Assembly: GCA_028864975.1 (NCBI GenBank)
Contig: JAGWLG010000002.1
Coordinates: 24,043 to 88,042, forward strand
Source of the DNA: Thermoplasmata archaeon
Lineage (GTDB): Archaea; Thermoplasmatota; Thermoplasmata; Lutacidiplasmatales; UBA184
Direction: 5' to 3'
DNA: 64,000 bases
The translations under genes and the position numbers were made by a program. Each line of letters starts with the position of its first letter. The first letter of the stretch is position 1. This document shows, piece after piece, positions 7,984-64,000 of the stretch. The notes beneath the pieces are model-generated. The model had not been told where the DNA came from. It did no database searches and was given only the letters and a program-made list of their open reading frames with translations.

Positions 7984-10548
7984 TCACGCGGAGCGCCCCC
8001 CGCTTCTCGGCGGGCGTTCTGCCTCGGGAGGAGACGGACCTCCTGCCACGGCACGCTCCGAAGCGATGCGACGGGAGGGCGCGACGAAGCGGGCGGCATA
8101 GAACCAGGCCCGCGGGGATGGGAGATGGAGATGCGAGCGGTGAGGAGCGGACGGGCCCCTGCGCTCCAGTCTTCCGTACACCCGGCTCTTCAGCTGGTCG
8201 AAGACCACGAGGTCCAGGCAGGAGAAAGCCCAGGCGACCCCCACCCAGACGAGAGGGAGCGGGGTGATCAGGAACCCCGACACGGCGATGAGCGTCGCGA
8301 CGGCCTGGGTCCCCACGACGGCGACGAGCAGGAGGTTCGCGGGGCGTGAGGACCAGAACGGGCCCTTGGTCCGCGTCGCGAAGATCCCCAGGTGGCCCGC
8401 GACGGAGAGCTTGAGGTAAAGGAGCGTCTGGATCGCGGCGAACGGTAGCACCCAGACCTTCAGCGCCAGGAAGAAGAGCAGGAAGGAGAAAGCGACCCCC
8501 ACCATCCCGAGCAGGAAGGCCTGGACGAGGACCGTGCGCATCTCCCATCGGACCGGTCGGGGGGCGACGGTGGCGTTGTCGTACGCGATGGAGAGGATCG
8601 CTCCGTCGTTCAGCACGGCCAGGAGCACGATCATGATCGCCGTGACGGGGTAGAGCGCGAAGGCGAGGATCGAGAGCGAGAGGAGGAGGAGGATACGGAT
8701 GGTCTCGCCCACGCGGTAGATCGCGTAGGAGGTCATCCGCTGGAAGATCCTGCGGCTCTCTTCGACGGCGCGGACCAGCACCCGAAGCCCCGGGGTCAGG
8801 AGCACCAGGCTCGCCGCGCCGCGCGCGACGTCCGTGGCGCCGGAGACCGCGACCCCGGCATCCGCCTTCTTCAGCGCAGGAGCGTCGTTGACGCCGTCCC
8901 CGGTCATGCCGACGATGCGGCCCTCCGCCTGGAGGCGCTCGACGATCGCGTACTTGTCCTCGGGAAAGACCTGAGCGAACCCGTCCGCCCGGTCGATGGC
9001 CTCCGAGCGGACCGAAGCTCCCTGTCCTGGGGAAACATGCAGGACCTCCGCGGGAAGGATGTTCGTCCCCAGCCCCAGCTGCCGCGAGGTCTCCTTCCCG
9101 ATCGCGAGCTGGTCCCCGGTCAGCACCTTGACCTGGACCCCGAGGGCCTGGGCCCCGCGGACGACCTCTCTGGCGTCGGGCCGCAGGGGGTCGTAGAGCG
9201 GGAGGACCCCGAGGAAGTGCCATGGCCCGGTGCCCTCCCTGCGGGCGACGCCCAGCGTACGGAACCCACGGGCCGCGAAGTCCGAGACGACGGACTCCGA
9301 CGCATGGAGCTCCTCGCCTCTCAGGTGGGTGAGCTCGAAGAGCACCTGGCAGGCCCCCTTCGACACCGAGAGCTCGGTCCCCTGCGACGTCTGGATATGG
9401 ACCTCCGTCCGTTTCACCTTCGGGTCGAAGGGGGTGAACGCGAGGACCGAGAAGGGAGCGCGTTCCGGCGCAGGGACCTTCGAGAGGATCGCAAGGTCGA
9501 TCGGGTCCTGGTTCTCCTCCCGCGAGGCCAGGGCGGCCATGAGGAGCACCTCCCGTGGGTCGTGGCCGCTCAAGGCGTAGGGGTCGCCCACCGTGAGCTT
9601 GTTCTGGGTCAGGGTCCCGGTCTTGTCCGAGCAGAGGACGTCCATGCCCGCGAGCTCCTCCATGGCGGAGAGCCGGGTGACCACCGCCTGCTCGCCCGCG
9701 AGCTTCCTCGCCCCCACGGCCATCGTGACCGAGAGCACGGTCGGCATGGCGACCGGTATCGCGGCCACCGTGAGGATGAGGGCGAACTGCAGGCTGTCAA
9801 GGAGCCGCTCCCCCCGCAACAAGGCGGCGATCTCGATGACCGCGGCCAGCGCCGCGGCCGTCACGATGAGCGCGTTCCCGATCCGAAGCACGGCGTGCTG
9901 GAAGTGGCTCACGGTGTGCGCGACCTGGACCAGCTCGCTCGTTCTTCCGAAGAACGTGTGAGGCCCGGTCCCCGAGACCACGCCGGCCGCCTCGCCTCGA
10001 GCGACCAGGGAACTGGAGTAGGCCGTGTCGCCGCCGTTCTTGGTGACAGGAAGGGATTCCCCCGTGAGCGTGGACTGGTCGAGCTCGAGCTCCGAACCCG
10101 CCGCGAGGACCGTGTCGGCGGGGACCACGTCGCCCATGCGCAAGCGGACCCGGTCGCCGGGGACGAGCTGACGCGCGGGGAGCAGGGCCCAGGCCCCGTC
10201 GCGAAGCACGCGCGCGTTCACCGCGAGCTTTGCACGAAGGGCGGCCACCGCGTTGCCGGCCTGGTGCTCCTCCCAGAACCCGACGACCCCGTTCACCACG
10301 AGAAGGACCAGGATGATGCTCAGGTCGTCCCAGTTCTCCACGAGGAGCGCGAGCGCCGCCGCGACCTCGATCATCCAGGGGATCGGGCCCCAGAAGTACC
10401 CGAGGAAGACGAGCAAGGGGTTGCGATGCTTCTCCGGGATCTCGTTGGGACCGTACCGACCCAGGAGCTCCTTGGCCTGGGCCGAGCTGAGCCCAGGCCC
10501 CTCCGCGGAGGGGGGCGACGTCGGGGCCGGCCCGGTCCCTTTCACCAC
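7984..10548 (-). CDS. P-type ATPase, plasma-membrane H+/cation-transporting type (P3A-like)
   Basis: 'CSDKTGTLTQNKL' phosphorylation motif, 'TGDGVNDAPALKKADAGVAV' hinge motif, N-terminus 'LGRYGPNEIPEKHRNPLLVFLGYFWGPIPWMIE' typical of P3A ATPases. Confidence 0.85.
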   Translation of the reverse strand: MVKGTGPAPTSPPSAEGPGLSSAQAKELLGRYGPNEIPEKHRNPLLVFLGYFWGPIPWMIEVAAALALLVENWDDLSIILVLLVVNGVVGFWEEHQAGNAVAALRAKLAVNARVLRDGAWALLPARQLVPGDRVRLRMGDVVPADTVLAAGSELELDQSTLTGESLPVTKNGGDTAYSSSLVARGEAAGVVSGTGPHTFFGRTSELVQVAHTVSHFQHAVLRIGNALIVTAAALAAVIEIAALLRGERLLDSLQFALILTVAAIPVAMPTVLSVTMAVGARKLAGEQAVVTRLSAMEELAGMDVLCSDKTGTLTQNKLTVGDPYALSGHDPREVLLMAALASREENQDPIDLAILSKVPAPERAPFSVLAFTPFDPKVKRTEVHIQTSQGTELSVSKGACQVLFELTHLRGEELHASESVVSDFAARGFRTLGVARREGTGPWHFLGVLPLYDPLRPDAREVVRGAQALGVQVKVLTGDQLAIGKETSRQLGLGTNILPAEVLHVSPGQGASVRSEAIDRADGFAQVFPEDKYAIVERLQAEGRIVGMTGDGVNDAPALKKADAGVAVSGATDVARGAASLVLLTPGLRVLVRAVEESRRIFQRMTSYAIYRVGETIRILLLLSLSILAFALYPVTAIMIVLLAVLNDGAILSIAYDNATVAPRPVRWEMRTVLVQAFLLGMVGVAFSFLLFFLALKVWVLPFAAIQTLLYLKLSVAGHLGIFATRTKGPFWSSRPANLLLVAVVGTQAVATLIAVSGFLITPLPLVWVGVAWAFSCLDLVVFDQLKSRVYGRLERRGPSAPHRSHLHLPSPRAWFYAARFVAPSRRIASERAVAGGPSPPEAERPPRSGGRSA

Positions 10549-39662: not shown

Positions 39663-42600
39663 GTGGAAGAGGGCCTGCCTCTCGAGGATATGTCGCCCAC
39701 GCCGTCGGGGCCCGCCGCGGCCCCCGTCTTCGTCGGCCGTGAGGCGGAGCGGAGCCGGCTCCAGGAAGGGGTCGATCGTGCCCGCGGAGGGCAGGGGAAC
39801 TCTTGGGTGATCTCGGGCCCCGCGGGAGTCGGGAAGACGCGATTGATGCAGTGGCTGGAGGGGGAGGCCCAGACCCAGGGGTTCCGGGTCCTCTGGGGGT
39901 ACTGCCTGAAGGAGGACGTCTCCCCGTTCTTTCCCTTCGAGCAGATCCTCCATCGGCTGGGCCCTCGGGGTGGGTCCCGCGGTGGGGCCGGCGCGGCCGA
40001 GGCGGGGGTGGGGGACGTCCCGTTCCAGGTCGACGAGGCGGCCGCCGTGGTCATCTTCGAAGAGGAGAAGCCGAAGCGCATCTTCGACCACGCGTCGGCG
40101 CTCTCGAAGGCGCATCCCTGCCTCGTGCTGGGCCGGGACCGTCCTCAGTCGGTGCGGCAGAGGTTCCCCGAGCTCGCTCCCTCCTCGCGAGTCCTTTGGC
40201 TGTCGAGGACCGAGGGGGAGGAGGTGATCCCTCCGAGCCAGCTGGACGCGTTGGGCGAGCTCGCGGAGAAGCACCTCCGCCAGCACGAGGGAGGCGTCGT
40301 CGCGCTCGCGGGCATCGAGTACCTGGTGAGCCAGAATACGTTCCTCCCGGTGCTGCGGCTCTTGCAGTTCCTGAGAGACGTCGCTGAGGGGACAGGGGGG
40401 AAGCTGCTCCTCTCGGTCCACCCCGCGGCCTTCGATGCCCGGGAGTTCTCGCTGCTCGAGGCCGAGGGGGAGGTGGTGAAAGCCCCGTCGGCGGCGTCGC
40501 CCACCGGAGGGAGCGCCGAGGAGCGGCCGTCGGGCCGGGGGACGAGCGAGCCCTCCTCCGCCACGCTCCTCCGATACGTCCAGACGTTCGAGGCGGAGTC
40601 CCGCAACCGACCGCTCCTGCTCCTGCTGGACGACTTCCAGTGGGCGGACGAAGGCTCGGCGCTGGCCTTCCAGTTCCTCTCTCGGAACCTTCGGCGGGCC
40701 CCCGTCATCCTCGTGGCGGGCGTCCGCGACGCCGAGACGCGGACCACGGTCGCGGCGGGAGGCGGGAGCCCCCAGGAGGGGGTCGTCGTCGATGTCATGG
40801 ACAACCTGGACCGCGAAGGGATCCTGCGGAGGCTGCCGCTGCGGGGGCTCGACCCGGGGGAGGCGCGCGACCTCCTCGAAGGCTACCTGGGGGCACCGCT
40901 CGCGCCGGGGGACGTCGAGGGGGCGGCGCAGACCCTGGTCGAGCTCACCGGAGGGAACCCGTACCACCTCCTGCAGGTCGTGAGCCAGCTCAAGGAGGAG
41001 GGGCTCGCCCGGGTCGAGGGGGGCCGGGGGCTCATCTCGCTCCCTGCTCCGACGGAGGTTGGGTCGTCGTTCGCGGGCTCTCGGGGGCGCACCTCGCTCC
41101 CGACGATCCGGCGCCTGGTCTCTCGGCAGCTCGAAGGCCTGCCGAAGGAGGACCGCGCCCTTCTCGAGACCGCGTCCCTCGTCGGGCGGGAGTTCGACCT
41201 CCCTCCCCTGGCGGACGTTCTAGGTCGCTCCCGGGAGGACCTGAAGGCCCGTGCCGAGAAGCTCACCACGCGGCCCCCGCTCCTCACGGCACGGGAGGAC
41301 GGGAAGCGCTACGCCTTCCAGAACCCGATCGTCTGGGAGGTGGCGAGGGAGGAGCTCTCGGCCGAGGACCGACGCCGGTGCTCCCGGACCCTCGCGGACT
41401 GGTTCACCTCGCGTCGTCCAGAGGAGACCGAGACCATCGCGCGCCTCTACTACGAGGCCCGGGACCGGACGAAGGGGCTTCCGTGGATCCGCAAGGCGGC
41501 CGACAAGGCGCTCCGGACGCAGGCGAGCGATGCGGTCGAGCGTTACGTTCGGTGGGCGGAGGACCTGCTGCGCGGGAGCGGGGAGGACTGGGAGGGACGC
41601 GTGATGGAGGGGGTACGGCTCGCGGAGGGGATCCGCGAACAGGGGGCTATCCGCGACGCCCGACGGCTCCTGCAAGGGTTGCTGGAAGCGGGGCCCCCCG
41701 ACAAGCTCCGTTGGCGGGTCCAGAGGGCGCTGGTCATGGCCCAGGCGGACATCGATGCGCGCGAAGCCCGCACGCGGCTCGAGGAGCTCGAACGCAGCCT
41801 CCAGGCAATGCCCGAGGCGAAGATGCCGGAGTGCCGCTCGCTCCTCGCGGTGACGCGGGCCCACGTGCTGACCCTCGCGGGCTCGTGGGAGGAAGGGCTC
41901 GCCGCGGCGCGCGAGGCCCTCCAGCTGCTCTCGGAGGTAGGAGGGGGAGACCCGGCCGAACGTGCGCAAGCCCTCTACGCGGCGGGGTGGTGCCTGAAAC
42001 AGCTGGGACGGCTCGAGGAGGCGCGCGAGCAATTCGCCCAAGGTCGCGCCGCGGCGGCGGTCGCCGAGCGACCGGGGCTGCTCGCCTCCCACATGAACGG
42101 CGAGGGGGCGGTCGCCCTCCTTCGAGGGGACCTCCCGGCCGCGCGCCGGGCCTTCGAGGACGCGGTCGAACAGTGCCGCAAGACGGGGAACGTCGCGAGG
42201 GTCGCCTCGATCCTGCTCAACATGGCCGAGGTCGCGTTGAACCTGGGGGACCTGGAGGCCGCCCGGAAGGCGGCCGAAGAGGCGCAGGCGCTGGGGGAGC
42301 GCTTCGACGTCCCTCGGGTCGCCGCCAACGCGACCTTCCGCATGGGCGTGATCCACCAGAAGGAGAAGCGATGGGAGGAGGCTCGCACGGCGTTCCAGGC
42401 CGCGCTCGAGCGCTACGACCGCTTGGGCCTGGCCGACCTCGCCTACTCCGCCCGGATCAACCTCGCGCTCCTGCGCGGGATCATGGGCGACCCTCAGTCC
42501 GCCCTCGTCGAGCTCGAGGAGATGGTCCGCAAGAGCGTGGGCGTCGACCTCAGGAACCTACCGCTCTATCACCAGGCCCGGGCGGAGCTCAAGGGGTTCA

Positions 42601-42815
42601 CCGGCGACTCCGACGGAGCGAAGCGCGAGCTCGAGCGGGGGCTCGAGGCCGCGCGTTCGACGCAGAACCTCCTCTCGCAGGCTTCCCTGCACGAAGCCCT
42701 GGGGGCGTGGGAGGATGCGCACGGGGACCCCGCGCGGGCCCGGGTCCAGCGCGAGCAGGCCGAGGCGCTCTTCCGTCAATGCGGACTACCGAAAGGGAGC
42801 ACCTCGCGCGGCTGA
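39663..42815 (+). CDS. STAND-type AAA_16 ATPase with DUF835-like domain inserted between Walker A and Walker B, and C-terminal TPR array
   Basis: 'PVFVGREAERSRL...WVISGPAGVGKTRLMQWL' (AAA_16 start plus Walker A), 'PFFPFEQILHRL'; residues approx. 150-270 'RVLWLSRTEGEEVIPPSQLDALGELAEKHLRQHEGGVVALAGIEYLVSQNTFLPVLRLLQFLRDVAEGTGGKLLLSVHPAAFDAREFSLLEAE' match the DUF835 pattern; then 'LLLLLDDFQWADEGSALAFQFLSR' (AAA_16 Walker B/hhhhDDxhWaD); about 550 aa of TPR-like helical repeats follow. Confidence 0.8.
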   Translation: MEEGLPLEDMSPTPSGPAAAPVFVGREAERSRLQEGVDRARGGQGNSWVISGPAGVGKTRLMQWLEGEAQTQGFRVLWGYCLKEDVSPFFPFEQILHRLGPRGGSRGGAGAAEAGVGDVPFQVDEAAAVVIFEEEKPKRIFDHASALSKAHPCLVLGRDRPQSVRQRFPELAPSSRVLWLSRTEGEEVIPPSQLDALGELAEKHLRQHEGGVVALAGIEYLVSQNTFLPVLRLLQFLRDVAEGTGGKLLLSVHPAAFDAREFSLLEAEGEVVKAPSAASPTGGSAEERPSGRGTSEPSSATLLRYVQTFEAESRNRPLLLLLDDFQWADEGSALAFQFLSRNLRRAPVILVAGVRDAETRTTVAAGGGSPQEGVVVDVMDNLDREGILRRLPLRGLDPGEARDLLEGYLGAPLAPGDVEGAAQTLVELTGGNPYHLLQVVSQLKEEGLARVEGGRGLISLPAPTEVGSSFAGSRGRTSLPTIRRLVSRQLEGLPKEDRALLETASLVGREFDLPPLADVLGRSREDLKARAEKLTTRPPLLTAREDGKRYAFQNPIVWEVAREELSAEDRRRCSRTLADWFTSRRPEETETIARLYYEARDRTKGLPWIRKAADKALRTQASDAVERYVRWAEDLLRGSGEDWEGRVMEGVRLAEGIREQGAIRDARRLLQGLLEAGPPDKLRWRVQRALVMAQADIDAREARTRLEELERSLQAMPEAKMPECRSLLAVTRAHVLTLAGSWEEGLAAAREALQLLSEVGGGDPAERAQALYAAGWCLKQLGRLEEAREQFAQGRAAAAVAERPGLLASHMNGEGAVALLRGDLPAARRAFEDAVEQCRKTGNVARVASILLNMAEVALNLGDLEAARKAAEEAQALGERFDVPRVAANATFRMGVIHQKEKRWEEARTAFQAALERYDRLGLADLAYSARINLALLRGIMGDPQSALVELEEMVRKSVGVDLRNLPLYHQARAELKGFTGDSDGAKRELERGLEAARSTQNLLSQASLHEALGAWEDAHGDPARARVQREQAEALFRQCGLPKGSTSRG

Positions 42816-59492: not shown

Positions 59493-60674
59493 TCAGCCGG
59501 GGGGACGGGCGACCGACTCGTCCACCGTCGAGTCGTAGACCTCTCCCGGGGGGACAGCTTCCGCCTCCTCCGGGGAGAGGGCGGAGAGGACCGCCCGCTC
59601 GGTCGCGAGCTCGGCCCGTTGGGTCGCACGACGGAAGGCTAGGACCTCGAAGAGGAGCGCGGCGGCCGGCACCAGGAGCACGAGGACCGCGCTGTCAAGG
59701 AACTCCGTCGCGGGCGAAGGGGAGGACGGGGTGCTCACGCCGGGGACGTCGGCGACGCTCAAGTTCGCCGTAACGGGCTCCGAGGCGGTCGGAGCACGGG
59801 AGGTGGCCTCGAGCGCGCGGTAACCCGAGATGGAGGGGTCGTAGAGCCCCTGGAGCGTCCACGCCGCGAGCGGGCCGGAGGAGAGGGTGCGGAGGACGAC
59901 GGAGAGGGTCGTCGCGTACTGCCGGTAGGAGTTGCAGACGTAGAGCACGCACGAGGTGGAGCTCCCCGGGGGGTAGAGGCGCTGGTAGGTCGCGTTGACC
60001 TGGGCGAACGTGCTCGCGATGGCGCTGCTGCAGGCGCCGCCAACGACGGCGGAGACGGTCGTCGACCACACCCCTCCCGCCCCGAGGGGGAAGGAGAGCC
60101 CTCCGGGCACCGGACGCGAAAGGTTCGCCCAGGAGGTTCCGTTGGGACATTGCCACGCGATCCCCTCCAGGTATCCGTTGACCCCGTCCAGGACCCAACC
60201 CGCGAAGGGCCAGGTCGACGCGACGGGACCGCGGGCGCTCCAGTTCCATCGCTCGAGCACGGGAGTATCATGGGCGCCCGTGAGGGCCAGGTTCAGCGCC
60301 ACGGTCCCCCCGTTCGGAAGGACCGACCCCTCGTAGGTCGAGTCCGCGACGTACGTCCAAGTTGCGGTCCCGAGGACGGGTGGGGGCCCGTAGGTGGGGT
60401 CCCGCGCGGGGGGAAGCAGGAGGGGGAGCACGACGAGCGAGGCGACCCAGAGGGCGAGGTAGAGGAGGAGGCGGCGCCGGGCCTGCACGTGGTGGGCAAG
60501 GGAAGGGCGCCCATACCCTTTCTCGCCGCACGTCGCACCGAAATCGGGGTGCGAGCGCGCCTCGGGGCCGAGCGTGGGCGACCGACCTCGGCCCCCCAGC
60601 GCGGCCTGAGCCTCCTGAAGGAGCCTTGCGACGGGAGGACTTGCGCCCCGGGGCCCACCTTCCACCCTCCCCAT
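59493..60674 (-). CDS. bitopic membrane protein with Cys-containing extracellular domain, hypothetical
   Basis: N-terminal TM 'LLLYLALWVASLVVLPLLL', approx. 270-aa Ser/Thr/Gly-rich ectodomain with 4 Cys, C-terminal TM 'AVLVLLVPAAALLFEVLAF'. Confidence 0.45.
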   Translation of the reverse strand: MGRVEGGPRGASPPVARLLQEAQAALGGRGRSPTLGPEARSHPDFGATCGEKGYGRPSLAHHVQARRRLLLYLALWVASLVVLPLLLPPARDPTYGPPPVLGTATWTYVADSTYEGSVLPNGGTVALNLALTGAHDTPVLERWNWSARGPVASTWPFAGWVLDGVNGYLEGIAWQCPNGTSWANLSRPVPGGLSFPLGAGGVWSTTVSAVVGGACSSAIASTFAQVNATYQRLYPPGSSTSCVLYVCNSYRQYATTLSVVLRTLSSGPLAAWTLQGLYDPSISGYRALEATSRAPTASEPVTANLSVADVPGVSTPSSPSPATEFLDSAVLVLLVPAAALLFEVLAFRRATQRAELATERAVLSALSPEEAEAVPPGEVYDSTVDESVARPPG

Positions 60675-60762
60675 CGGCTTCGGGGAGGACCCGCCGACCG
60701 CCCAGTCGAACGGCGGGATTCAAATACCGGTCCGGGGCGTGAATGCCCCGCGGAGCGCAACA

Positions 60763-61424
60763 TGAGGAAGGGACTGGTGATCGTGGGGGTCGTCCTGCTG
60801 GCCTTGGGAGCGGTGCTGATGTTCGTCCCGCTGATCCCTTCGACGATAAGTTCGACGGCGAGCAACCCTTCGGCCAACGGCGGAATGATCGGCTACAACA
60901 TCTACCAGTCCAGCTTCTCCCTGACCGGGGGAACCACCGGCAAGTTCTCCTTCTCCTCTTCCTCCCCGGTGGACATCGCGGTCATCACCTGCTCCCGCGC
61001 GGTCACCACCTCGCAGCTTCAGCAGGCCACCACCAGCGCCCAGTTCAATGCGGCCTGCGGGACCAACACCACATACGGGACGACGCAGGTCGGAGGCTTC
61101 TCGTTCTCGAACGGCACGAGCGGTCCCTTCTCCGTGACCATCCCCTCCGGAGGGACCCTCATCTGGTTCGCGCTCTCGGGACAGAACTCCCCTCCGACCG
61201 TGACCGTGACGACGACGTACACCTCCCCGCTGCTCGGGCTGGTGCTCTTGGTCATCGGCGTGCTCCTCCTGCTCTTGGGGGTGGCCCTCAAGTCGAAGAA
61301 GCAGAAGCAGGCCGCGACCTCTCTGCCTCCGCCCCAGCCGTGGGGCCCTCCTTCCGGCCAAGGTGTGGCGTCGCCAGGAGCTCCCCCACCGGCCTGGCAA
61401 CAGCCTCCTCCACCCTCGCGATAG
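60763..61424 (+). CDS. bitopic membrane protein, small Cys-pair ectodomain, Pro-rich cytoplasmic tail (paralogue family member B)
   Basis: TM 'LVIVGVVLLALGAVLMFVPLI', ectodomain with 'ITCSRAV...NAACGTN', TM 'LLGLVLLVIGVLLLLLGVAL', tail 'PPPQPWGPPSGQGVASPGAPPPAWQQPPPP'. Confidence 0.5.
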
Positions 61425-61618
61425 TCGAGGCGAGGGGCCGCTTTCGCGTCGCAGCGCAAGCGCAGCGGCGGCGCCCCGTGAAGGGCTCAGGCCCCTGGCC
61501 GCCCCGTATGGGGCGATCCTCCCATCCCGTCCTGTCCATCGGTCCGCTCCAAGCCCCGATGGGGGGAGCGCGGCAGAGGGACCGGAGCGTCGTGGCGCGG
61601 AGGTGCACCTTCCCCCGG

Positions 61619-61636
61619 GGCCTTTTATAGAGAGCA
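61619..61636 (+). promoter_or_regulatory. putative BRE/TATA promoter element (GGCCTTTTATAGAGAGCA)
   Basis: Shares core CCTTT(T)ATAGAGA with 44221-44233; only about 12 nt before ATG 61642, so the real start may be slightly downstream or the transcript leaderless. Confidence 0.3.
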
Positions 61637-61641
61637 GAGCC

Positions 61642-62322
61642 ATGGCTCGCCCTGGGGAGCCCTCAGTGCGACCCGTCTTCGCCCTTGTCGGTTCGGCTAT
61701 CCTGGTCCTTCTCGCGCTCCTCTCTTACTTCGTTGCGGCGGGGTTCCAGCAGCAGAACAGCCTCTACCTCTCCTCTGGGCCCCTCTACACGGGAGGGGCG
61801 GGGTCGGCGGTGGTCGATCCCACCTCGTCGGAGGACACTTTCCTTCCGAACATCCCGGTGAACGTCACCGTGACCGACCTCCCGGCTGGGGCGACGGTCT
61901 ACGCCTTCCCGTGTCCCACGGGGGTGACGAACTCGACCCAGTGTGCCAAGAGCGCCCCCTCGTTCATCGATTCCTGGACCGGCAACGGGGACGGGCACCC
62001 GGTCTTCCTCCACTTCAACGTCAACGTCGGGCACGCTTTCGTGCTCACGACCAATGCCGGCCGGGGTGCCCAGGTCGCCTACACGGCGAAGGTCCCGCTG
62101 TGGGCCCTCCAGACGTGGGTGGTCGTGATCGTCATGATCGTGGGGATCGTTCTGGTCGGGGTGGGCCTCTCCCGGGGGCACTCCTCGGGGTCGGCGGCCT
62201 CCTATGGCGAACCGGCCGGATACTCCTCACCCCCCCTTCGGCGGTTCTGCGAGACCTGCGGGAGCCGCTTCCCCGACGACATGACAATGTACTGCCCCTC
62301 CTGCGGCGCGCCCCGGATGTGA
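61642..62322 (+). CDS. bitopic membrane protein, Cys-pair ectodomain, C-terminal cytoplasmic zinc ribbon (family member C)
   Basis: TM 'VFALVGSAILVLLALLSYFVAAG', 'FPCPTGVTNSTQCAKS', TM 'WVVVIVMIVGIVLVGVGL', 'CETCGSRFPDDMTMYCPSCG'; TATA-like 'CCTTTTATAGAGAG' just upstream. Confidence 0.5.
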   Translation: MARPGEPSVRPVFALVGSAILVLLALLSYFVAAGFQQQNSLYLSSGPLYTGGAGSAVVDPTSSEDTFLPNIPVNVTVTDLPAGATVYAFPCPTGVTNSTQCAKSAPSFIDSWTGNGDGHPVFLHFNVNVGHAFVLTTNAGRGAQVAYTAKVPLWALQTWVVVIVMIVGIVLVGVGLSRGHSSGSAASYGEPAGYSSPPLRRFCETCGSRFPDDMTMYCPSCGAPRM

Positions 62323-62323
62323 G

Positions 62324-63598
62324 GTGGGAACGGTGAGAGAAGGTCTACTGTTCCCCGGTGTGGTCCTCACGGTCCTGATGATCCTGTTCGCCTTCGCTCC
62401 TCTCCCGAACGCTCCGTCCGGGCAGGTGAGCTCGGCCCGGGCGCTCACGGTGAAGCCCCCCGCCTTCCCCTACTCGGAGGAGACGCCGATCAGCGTCAGC
62501 TGGAACGGGGGGAACGCTAGCACCTTCCTCGAGATCATCCCGTGCCTGGACTCGAACTGCTCTGCCGGGCCGAAGGCCCCCGTCACCGCGCCGCTCACGG
62601 TCAACGGAGGGGCCGTTGTGGCCAACGGGAGCTCGGGCGGCTTCACGGTCTGGGTCTCCACGACGCTGAGCCTGCTCATCGTGACGAACTCTCTCGCGCC
62701 GCTCAGCGTCACCGTGACGTGGAACGAGATGCCGGAGTTCGGGTTGCTCTGGGAGATCCTGACGGTCGTGGGCATCCTCCTCACGATCGGCGGGATGGTG
62801 CTCCCCGAGCACGGGGCCCCCCGCGGGCACCACCGGCGGCTTTCCTACGCCCACTGGAGGCACCACGCCTTCGCGCTCCCCCCTCACCTTCCCTCGACGG
62901 GGCTGACCTGCTCCGCCTGCGGGCTCTCGGACATCCCGCACGAGGACGACTTCTGCCCGCGTTGCCAAGCCCCCTTGCCGCGGGCCTCGACGGTCGTCCC
63001 CGGTCCTCCGTCGACCGCGGCGGCCGCCCCGGCCTCCCCCGCACGCCCCCGTGGCGCGGAGATGGCGGCGGGGACCGCCGCGGCGGCGTCGGCGGCCGGC
63101 ACGGTGGCCGCCGTGCCCCCCAAGAAGCGCGTCGCGGTGAACAAGTCGAAGGTCGCGGGGCAGTCGCTCTCCGTCGCCGACCCCGACCCGCTACGACCCT
63201 GGCGCGTGATGAAGGGCCTCGGGTTCGCTCCCGAAGAGGCCGTCGTCTTCACCCGCGAGGACCCGGTGGTCCTGGAGGAGAAGTACCACCTGACCGCTCA
63301 GCAGGTCCACATCATCAGCCGCACCGAAGGGGAGGGGACGATCTCCCCCTCGGAGTGCGACAAGATCGCGGACCTCGCCGACCAGCATCTTCGCAGCCAC
63401 GCGGGGGGCGTCGTGGTCCTGACCGACCCGAACTACTTCGTGACCCACGGTGGGTTCGACGTGCTTCGTAGGTTGGTGCTCGCGATCCAGGACCACGCCC
63501 GCGAGCAACGCGGGACCTTCATCCTCGCCTTCAACCCGTCGGTCTTCACGCCCGACCAGCGAGCGCAGCTCGAGGAGCGGATGCGCAAGGTCGTGTGA
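62324..63598 (+). CDS. bitopic membrane protein with Cys-pair ectodomain, cytoplasmic zinc ribbon, Ala/Pro-rich linker and C-terminal DUF835-like domain (family member D)
   Basis: TM 'LLFPGVVLTVLMILFAFAPL', 'IPCLDSNCSAGPK', TM 'LLWEILTVVGILLTIGGMVL', 'CSACGL...CPRCQAP'; C-terminus 'VVFTREDPVVLEEKYHLTAQQVHIISRTEGEGTISPSECDKIADLADQHLRSHAGGVVVLTDPNYFVTHGGFDVLRRLVLAIQDHAREQRGTFILAFNPSVFTPDQRAQLEE' aligns with the DUF835-like segment of the 39663 ORF. Confidence 0.6.
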   Translation: MGTVREGLLFPGVVLTVLMILFAFAPLPNAPSGQVSSARALTVKPPAFPYSEETPISVSWNGGNASTFLEIIPCLDSNCSAGPKAPVTAPLTVNGGAVVANGSSGGFTVWVSTTLSLLIVTNSLAPLSVTVTWNEMPEFGLLWEILTVVGILLTIGGMVLPEHGAPRGHHRRLSYAHWRHHAFALPPHLPSTGLTCSACGLSDIPHEDDFCPRCQAPLPRASTVVPGPPSTAAAAPASPARPRGAEMAAGTAAAASAAGTVAAVPPKKRVAVNKSKVAGQSLSVADPDPLRPWRVMKGLGFAPEEAVVFTREDPVVLEEKYHLTAQQVHIISRTEGEGTISPSECDKIADLADQHLRSHAGGVVVLTDPNYFVTHGGFDVLRRLVLAIQDHAREQRGTFILAFNPSVFTPDQRAQLEERMRKVV

Positions 63599-64000
63599 CC
63601 GACGGCATTACCCCTGCTGCACCGCTCCGATTCCGTCCGACCCGACGCCTCGAGCGCTCCCCCCATGGGGAGCGGCTGTTGGAGGCGGCGCTCGAGGTCG
63701 CTCCGGCCTTCCCCGAGCTTGCGGGAGAGGTCCGGTTGGACCTGCTCCCCAGCTCCTCCCGCTACCGTGGGCTGACCTTCGCGCTGGAGCGGCCGCCGAG
63801 GGTGGCCGTTCGACCTCACAGCCGGACGCCGATCGCGCTCCGCGCGACGTTGGCGCACGAGTTCGTCCACCTGCTGCAGCCCCCCCATGGGGACATCCCC
63901 GGAGGGGAGCGCTCGTGCGACCTCTACGCGATGGCGAGAGTGGGGAGCCGATACCCGCACCCCCCCGCCTATCTTCGACTTCCCCGGGGGCTCGCCCGCG
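63595..64000 (+). CDS. SprT-like/zincin-like metallopeptidase-domain protein, 3'-truncated at window end (not in ORF track)
   Basis: Frame 1 open from GTG overlapping the upstream stop (GTGTGA) to the window end with high GC3; 'RTPIALRATLAHEFVHLLQPPHGD' contains HExxH in a SprT-like context. Confidence 0.4.
   Translation, partial: MTDGITPAAPLRFRPTRRLERSPHGERLLEAALEVAPAFPELAGEVRLDLLPSSSRYRGLTFALERPPRVAVRPHSRTPIALRATLAHEFVHLLQPPHGDIPGGERSCDLYAMARVGSRYPHPPAYLRLPRGLAR

Follow-up and report, generated by a model that had tools for sequence, protein, structure and literature searches.

Four adjacent two-pass membrane protein genes of a Thermoplasmata archaeon: three possible evolutionary units, including a putative sensor pair with a DUF835 domain

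Four adjacent genes, which are named A, B, C, and D in this work, are located at positions 59493 to 63598 of a 64,000-nucleotide stretch of DNA (the window) from the Thermoplasmata archaeon assembly GCA_028864975.1 (contig JAGWLG010000002.1). All four genes encode proteins that consist of a transmembrane (TM) segment, an ectodomain, a second TM segment, and a tail. The preliminary description of this locus regarded the genes as one family with a constant ectodomain, generated by local duplication, that had diversified its cytoplasmic outputs. The reading favoured in this work is that the genes represent three evolutionary units (the C-D pair, B, and A) and that C and D form a sensor with a DUF835 output domain. 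We consider this reading to have an even chance of being correct.

Gene A is located on the minus strand (59493-60488, 331 aa). Genes B (60762-61424, 220 aa), C (61666-62322, 218 aa), and D (62333-63598, 421 aa) are located on the plus strand. The gene models were chosen from the candidate start codons, conservation, and the gene calls of L006 (GCA_028866665.1), which is a near-identical contig from another metagenome-assembled genome (MAG) that carries the same genes and runs beyond the window end. The D protein of that MAG is 99.8% identical to D, which corresponds to a single residue difference, and a 185-kb NCBI contig encodes a protein that matches C at 100% identity. The start of A is most likely the GTG at 60488 rather than 60674, because the gene call in the near-identical MAG begins there. 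An alternative ATG at 61642 would extend C to 226 aa. However, the TATA box lies only 10-12 nt before this ATG, which is missing in L012 and out of frame in L007, so C probably starts at the GTG at 61666. The N-terminal extension of C (MARPGEPS) is likely to be an untranslated leader or promoter DNA. An alternative GTG at 62324 would give a 424-aa form of D. The G+C content of the window is approximately 69%. Long antisense open reading frames (such as 60720-61643 and 61019-61459, both on the minus strand) were rejected as by-products of the approximately 70% G+C content because the proteins of the sense strand have conserved homologues. A scan of the region for bacterial-type promoters and terminators returned no match, as expected for an archaeon.

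Exactly two hydrophobic segments were identified in each protein by Kyte-Doolittle scans. The segments consist of residues 7-25 and 264-285 of A (331-aa form), 4-25 and 156-176 of B, 4-25 and 150-168 of C (218-aa form), and 5-24 and 137-157 of D (421-aa form). Both the coordinates and the hydropathy agree with the preliminary description on the gene order, the strands, and the TM, ectodomain, TM, and tail layout. Basic residues flank TM1 and TM2 on the N-/C-terminal sides in all four proteins, from which an N-in/C-in orientation with the middle domain outside is predicted. The ectodomains consist of 237-238 (A), 130 (B), 124 (C), and 112-114 (D) residues, with Ser, Thr, and Gly contents of 32% (A), 48% (B), 29% (C), and 31% (D), and each has two to five N-x-S/T sequons. 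The Cys motifs that had been quoted for B, C, and D are all present and conserved in homologues. The pairs are located at a similar depth in the ectodomain, although their spacing is unequal (21, 9, and 4 residues, respectively). The layout of two TM segments separated by a long loop was found in only one of about 48 other genes in the window (rough gene call), so the occurrence of four such genes in a row is not due to chance.

The C protein has TM1 (61675-61740), an ectodomain of 124 aa (61741-62112), TM2 (62113-62169), and a C4 zinc ribbon (62248-62304), all encoded on the plus strand. The ectodomain contains a conserved CPxGx6C Cys pair (61912-61944; C91 and C101 in the numbering of the 226-aa form). 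The zinc ribbon has the motif CETC-x11-CPSC, and its four Cys are invariant in six sequences; the C homologues are P0010-P0015. The D protein has TM1 (62345-62404), an ectodomain (62405-62740) with a CxxxxC Cys pair (62543-62560; C71 and C76) that is conserved in homologues, TM2 (62741-62803), a conserved His/Arg-rich juxtamembrane motif (62813-62893), a C4 zinc ribbon (62909-62965), and a DUF835 (inactivated KaiC) domain (63236-63577), also on the plus strand. All four Cys of the D zinc ribbon (CSAC-x11-CPRC) are invariant, and this motif is followed by an Ala/Pro-rich linker. The zinc ribbons of C and D, which are membrane-proximal in both proteins, align to each other in hhalign. Both scored below the cutoff of 27.3 bits for DZR (PF12773), with 18.1 bits for C and 15.3 bits for D. 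Sub-threshold Pfam scores are usual for motifs as short as zinc ribbons. The DUF835 match in D (PF05763) has an E-value of 2e-14 and 53.9 bits against a gathering cutoff of 33.1, and it covers profile positions 21-134 of 136, which correspond to residues 305-418 of the 424-aa form. No Walker A motif (GK[ST]) was found anywhere in D by reading of its sequence. The tails are thus as had been described, namely Pro-rich in B, CxxC-x11-CxxC in C, and CxxC-x11-CxxC followed by DUF835 in D.

Genes C and D are argued to belong to one transcription unit with the gene that follows them, because the distance between the C stop and the D start is only 1-10 nt, the D stop codon overlaps the start of the next gene by 4 nt, and a conserved TATA box, TTTTATAG (61623-61630, plus strand), is located upstream of C. 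This box is also present in the A-C intergenic region of the six relatives examined (L007 and L009-L013) and is the probable promoter of the unit. The third gene, whose 5' part is located at 63595-64000 on the plus strand, runs past the window end and is found in full in L006 (10834-11385, 183 aa). This gene is named the HExxH gene here because its product, a small, soluble protein, carries the motif HEFVHLLQPPH (HExxHx5H). The HExxHx5H spacing is typical of small zincin-type metallopeptidases. The HExxH protein has no match in Pfam, NCBIfam, or PADLOC.

The B protein has TM1 (60771-60836), an ectodomain with C77 and C99 (60837-61226), TM2 (61227-61289) followed by a KSKKQKQ stretch, and a Pro-rich tail (61323-61421), all on the plus strand. 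The C77 and C99 pair is conserved across homologues. A TATA-like box read from the sequence, TTCAAATA (60719-60727, plus strand), is located approximately 35-43 nt upstream of the B start codon, a spacing similar to that of the conserved TATA box before C, and it suggests that B may have its own promoter. The A protein has TM1 (60414-60470), an ectodomain (59700-60413), and TM2 (59634-59699) followed by an acidic cytoplasmic tail, all on the minus strand. The ectodomain of A has four Cys that are kept in seven of seven A homologues. No match to A was found in Pfam, NCBIfam, the PDB, or PADLOC.

Eight related loci (L006-L013) were compared with the window. The order of the genes for the proteasome alpha subunit, tyrosyl-tRNA synthetase (TyrRS), A (minus strand), C, and D was found in all eight loci. 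Gene A directly faces C-D in seven of them (L007-L013). The A homologues in L007 and L009-L011 occupy the same position with 32-49% identity, and genes of 335/336 aa occupy that position in L012/L013. The D homologues in L007-L011 are 52-69% identical to D, and further ones were found in L012/L013. The D-family relatives were collected from contigs that carry C homologues and by scanning a genome collection, which yielded three Thermoplasmata MAG loci. No homologue was returned by a word-indexed search with the N-terminal 230 aa of D, no match was found in a PDB sequence search with D, and the metagenome-collection scans with the D alignment and with the KaiC-like domain alignment described below each returned no relative. 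The HExxH gene follows C-D in the five loci that are long enough to show it (L006, L007, and L009-L011), and the homologues directly after D within L007-L011 are 67-83% identical. A KaiC-like gene and then a methyltransferase gene are located further downstream, each in four loci. The search for the family in related genomes, which had been proposed with the preliminary description, has therefore yielded syntenic homologues of A, C, and D, and B-family homologues at unrelated loci. A and C (41-61% identity for C) evolve faster than their housekeeping neighbours, which is consistent with surface exposure. A very large PKD/Flg_new_2-domain surface protein (at least 1470 aa) is also encoded in L006 at 1-2677, just upstream of the gene for a major facilitator superfamily transporter; in the window it lies upstream of approximately 55438 on the plus strand.

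Gene B differs from A, C, and D in its distribution. Of the loci compared, only the window and L006 have B between A and C, and L007-L013 lack it there. The B homologues (P0001-P0007, P0016-P0023, and P0027) originate from Thermoplasmata-type MAGs and metagenomes. They share 40-70% identity with B, match it in length and in the Cys pair, and carry a tail of the same type. The homologue nearest to B (70% identity) is located on a small contig without A or C. The homologues in L002-L005 are solitary and lie between fatty-acid oxidation genes, the homologue in L016 is also solitary, and the other members of the family do not adjoin C-D. A BLAST search for an insertion scar, in which the A-C intergenic regions of the relatives were compared with the A-B-C interval, matched only the region of the TATA box upstream of C. 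When 1.84 billion representatives were searched exhaustively with a hidden Markov model of the B ectodomain, the only matches were about a dozen small proteins (96-222 aa) and four large ones in which many short stretches matched; none was C- or D-like. Zinc ribbons and DUF835 are missing from all of the dozen or so B-type proteins, whose tails are mostly basic and Pro-rich. B thus appears, on these comparisons, to be a member of a separate small family of 170-220-aa proteins with a basic and usually Pro-rich tail.

Two B-type genes are encoded side by side in another Thermoplasmata MAG (L001). There, a 200-aa B-like paralogue (8927-9529), which has a Cys pair and a long acidic, Ser/Pro-rich tail, is located directly downstream of the B homologue. 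These two genes of L001 form a true B-type tandem, which the window does not have. A further protein, P0008 (226 aa; L014 6001-6681 and L015 3078-3758, from JGI metagenomes), combines a B-like ectodomain (GTGASGSFTATIPSG) with a C-terminal CxxC..CxxC tail. Its gene stands alone between pyrD-like genes and a CTP synthase gene. Both P0008 and the L001 paralogue exhibit a D-like W-S-G-G-x-S motif, and P0008 may stand between the B type and the C/D type in evolution.

These distributions bear on the claim that the four genes are one receptor- or adhesin-like family, in which local tandem duplication left the ectodomain constant while the outputs diversified recently. Four adjacent genes with one topology and a Cys pair in each ectodomain agree with that claim, as do the links of D to B and to C at 97% probability in full-length profile comparison (given below) and the coupling of a B-like ectodomain with a zinc ribbon in P0008. 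However, A is unrelated to the others in every comparison, B is not at the locus in seven related loci and its family is located elsewhere, the exhaustive B-ectodomain search returned no C- or D-like protein, and the similarity between B and C is at noise level. The tail type is also constant within each family, so the tails are not diversifying locally, as the preliminary description had supposed. We consider a single locally duplicated family very unlikely. Local duplication is plausible only for C and D, since B is absent from the locus in the relatives and A shows no similarity. The cluster is better described, as far as the comparisons of homologues indicate, as three old, separate families than as a locally diversifying receptor family.

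The relationship among the ectodomains was examined using profiles built from alignments of B (P0002-P0007 and later P0016-P0027), C (P0011-P0015), and A, C, and D (L007-L013). Smith-Waterman comparison of the ectodomains placed only B-D above shuffled sequences (z 4.35), while C-D, B-C, and all pairs with A were at noise. Full-length hhalign gave 97% probability for B-D (E approximately 1e-10, 164 columns) and for C-D (E 2e-11 to 4e-11, 206 columns), 67-88% for B-C, and less than 1% for A against any other protein. The ectodomain columns alone were then shuffled because TM helices inflate profile scores. The score decreased from 77.1 to 44.2 for B-D (standard deviation 6.0, maximum 56.8), from 81.0 to 50.2 for C-D (standard deviation 1.1), and from 47.0 to 34.9 for B-C (standard deviation 5.5, maximum 52.3). 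In comparisons of the ectodomains only, C-D scored 24.8 (E 1.3e-3, z 4.6-4.7) against 11.6 with a reversed profile, B-D scored 24.2 (z 4.7-6.6), and B-C was at noise level (z approximately 1). A-B scored 22.3 (E 0.0089, probability 4.5%), which is non-significant, and A-C and A-D were at noise. The first Cys of B and of C aligned on the first Cys of D, and the second Cys was also aligned for C-D.

The proposal of one common ectodomain is thus retained in part. D appears to be weakly and collinearly related to both B and C, while A is unrelated, B-C is at noise, and the signals of the ectodomains alone are marginal. A has no detectable sequence similarity to B, C, or D by Smith-Waterman or by full-length and ectodomain-only hhalign. 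A appears by these comparisons to be a gene that is syntenic with C-D, divergently transcribed, and of the same topology; its ectodomain is larger, has four Cys, and bears no sequence relationship to the others. The ectodomains of B, C, and D, but not that of A, could plausibly go back to a remote common origin, which is best supported for C-D.

AlphaFold2 models were made for B and C from six to seven sequences each. The B model has a mean predicted local distance difference test (pLDDT) score of 66.9, with core blocks mostly at 76-86, and the C model has a mean of 68.0. Both models exhibit the same order of elements, which consists of TM1, four strands, a short helix, four strands, and TM2. 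In both models the first Cys ends strand 4 and the second Cys is located on the short helical insert. Both models also match jelly-roll classes in the PDB by Foldseek (CBM6, GOLD, the collagenase PPC/collagen-binding domain, picornavirus VP1, and the MAM entry 8a28_A), and the best match of the B model is the gingipain adhesin domain. The check for a common fold, which had been suggested with the preliminary description, thus gave the same predicted element order and fold class for the two proteins modelled, B and C, at moderate model confidence.

An alternative to remote common origin is that B, C, and D share no ancestry, and that their likeness arises from TM helices, from Ser/Thr/Gly-rich beta-strand composition, and from a ubiquitous zinc ribbon, with the shared jelly-roll prediction being generic. 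Several of the results that favour this alternative also weigh against our reading of the locus. Much of the full-length hhalign score comes from the TM helices and the zinc ribbon. The pairwise hhalign probabilities of the ectodomains alone are below 20% (17-18% or lower) with E-values of about 1e-3, and no significant cross-match was found between ectodomain-only HMMER profiles. The B-D score of 24.2 barely exceeds that of the reversed profile (21.7), and the non-significant A-B pair reaches a score close to both. The Foldseek matches are weak (E approximately 3e-4, query-normalised TM-score 0.27-0.37, models of moderate confidence with pLDDT 67-68) and are scattered over many jelly-roll families. 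Two further points concern the sensor part of our reading. The conserved adjacency of C-D with its neighbours is weak evidence for functional coupling because the loci are rather closely related (73-75% TyrRS identity) and the whole neighbourhood, including the housekeeping genes, is equally collinear. In addition, DUF835 proteins of this type have, to our knowledge, no known ligand, partner, or phenotype.

On the other side, the C-D score is well above both its reversed and its shuffled controls, and the ectodomain columns add about 30 score units over shuffles. Alignments of 160-206 columns keep a collinear order and match the first Cys, and the C-D alignment also matches the second Cys and the zinc ribbon. 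The B and C models place their Cys at equivalent positions within the same element order, and the bridging proteins P0008 and the L001 paralogue carry the D-like W-S-G-G motif. We therefore consider an origin of B, C, and D without common ancestry somewhat unlikely. C and D are probably the products of an ancient tandem duplication, after which D gained, or C lost, DUF835. B would be distantly related to the D ectodomain and was placed between A and C in this lineage only; both points belong to the joint explanation to which we give an even chance.

The N-termini of B (60762-60800) and D (62333-62370) have the motif MR[KE]GL..G.VL in common, and this similarity raises another possibility, in which B and possibly D are surface-structure or adhesin-type proteins that are processed at a class III (prepilin-like) signal peptide and have no signalling role. 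Archaeal class III (type IV pilin-like) proteins are cleaved by prepilin peptidase at a [KR]-[GA] motif that precedes a hydrophobic segment, and they have no further membrane anchor. The B-family N-termini (MR[KTA]G/L-V-I-V-G, where the slash marks the predicted cleavage) fit the motif. The motif is present in most B-family members (MRKG/LVIV in B), and D has MREG/LLF. The N-glycosylation sequons in the ectodomains and the gingipain adhesin domain as the top match of the B model are also in line with this possibility. However, the motif is short and common where TM helices begin, P0007 lacks the Gly, and no pilus-assembly genes are located nearby. The conserved second TM segment and cytoplasmic tail, and the zinc ribbon and DUF835 of D, are likewise not a pilin architecture. 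We consider this reading as a whole highly improbable.

The sensor part of our reading relies on the DUF835 domain of D and on the genes downstream of it. DUF835 is classed as an inactivated KaiC (iKaiC) domain and is an output domain of archaeal response regulators (Galperin et al., 2018; PMC5847659). A gene for an 866-aa KaiC-like protein is located just downstream of the window end (L006 11501-14101). This protein consists of a Pro-rich region, a long coiled coil, and a C-terminal KaiC-like domain (PF06745, DUF7504). The PF06745 match covers residues 626-829 with an E-value of 4.4e-13 and 49.6 bits against a cutoff of 26.6. The KaiC-like domain is 78-92% identical among four loci, which is far above A, C, and D. 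Its Walker A reads APSHTGKD in place of GK[ST] and is invariant in the four loci, which suggests that the protein is possibly inactive or atypical. No defence-system match was found by PADLOC for A-D, the HExxH protein, or the KaiC-like protein, and no phage or solved-structure relatives were found for the cluster proteins.

A second DUF835 protein (1050 aa) is encoded in the window at 39663-42815 on the plus strand. It has AAA_16 matches, a DUF835 match (E 4e-22) right after the first of them, and a MalT-like array of tetratricopeptide repeats, and it appears from its domains to be a soluble iKaiC-containing signalling protein with a STAND-type nucleoside triphosphatase domain (AAA_16).

From the classification of DUF835 as iKaiC, the probable shared transcription unit, and the KaiC-like neighbour, we infer that C and D may act as a sensor that feeds the KaiC-like protein. 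In this model, C and D would assemble into a hetero-oligomeric extracytoplasmic sensor, and changes at their ectodomains would be relayed via TM2 and the zinc ribbon to the DUF835 domain of D, which would engage the coiled-coil KaiC-like protein encoded downstream. A more elaborate proposal, which we regard as unlikely, is that C, D, the HExxH protein, and the KaiC-like protein constitute an undescribed archaeal transmembrane signalling pathway. A heteromer of the paralogous jelly-roll receptors C and D would sense an extracellular cue and act through a zinc-ribbon/His-rich juxtamembrane switch and DUF835 on a KaiC-like scaffold, with the metalloprotease-like protein perhaps serving in processing or reset.

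KaiC-like and DUF835 domains have been proposed as major archaeal signalling hubs, and we know of almost no such hub in archaea with a known input. If the sensor reading is true, D would be a concrete membrane-receptor input for a KaiC-type hub. Three features of D could guide experiments in cultivable relatives: its ectodomain is small and tractable, and both its partner C and its KaiC-like neighbour are conserved. The present impact is otherwise limited, as the membrane proteins are hypothetical and come from uncultured Thermoplasmata of a narrow clade.

Comparing the proteins of this locus to known systems, the nearest structural resemblance of the B and C models is to jelly-roll modules (CBM6, GOLD of p24/SEC14L, collagenase PPC/collagen-binding, gingipain cleaved-adhesin, and MAM), which are their best PDB matches. 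Those modules are eight-stranded sandwiches of approximately 100-130 residues that often serve in binding. They share 7-16% identity with B and C, which amounts to no sequence similarity, at E-values of approximately 3e-4 to 5e-3. The target-normalised TM-score is at best 0.45-0.63, for the smallest targets, so the models would resemble them in fold class only. A like layout is also found in CDC50/LEM3, the subunits of eukaryotic P4-ATPase flippases, which have a TM segment, a disulfide-containing beta-sandwich ectodomain, and a second TM segment with both termini cytoplasmic. CDC50A was aligned with the B model over about 300 columns with a query-normalised TM-score of 0.29-0.30 and a root-mean-square deviation of 14-15 Å. 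However, the CDC50 ectodomain is much larger, it has no sequence relation to B, and no P4-ATPase is encoded nearby, which leaves an architectural analogy only.

D is similar to the REC-DUF835 proteins (PMC5847659) in that DUF835 is located at the output end of a sensor-type protein. The input module is different, since D has a two-pass membrane module with a predicted Cys-pair beta-sandwich ectodomain and a zinc ribbon in place of REC or PAS. In the literature searched, the only paper that mentions DUF835 does not describe the architecture of TM, ectodomain, TM, zinc ribbon, and DUF835. D also differs from known DUF835 systems in its surroundings, as it is paired with the DUF835-less paralogue C and followed by the HExxH protein, and a KaiC-like protein is encoded close by. 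At the domain level D belongs to the known DUF835 family, and it would be a membrane-anchored form of an iKaiC-type signalling protein.

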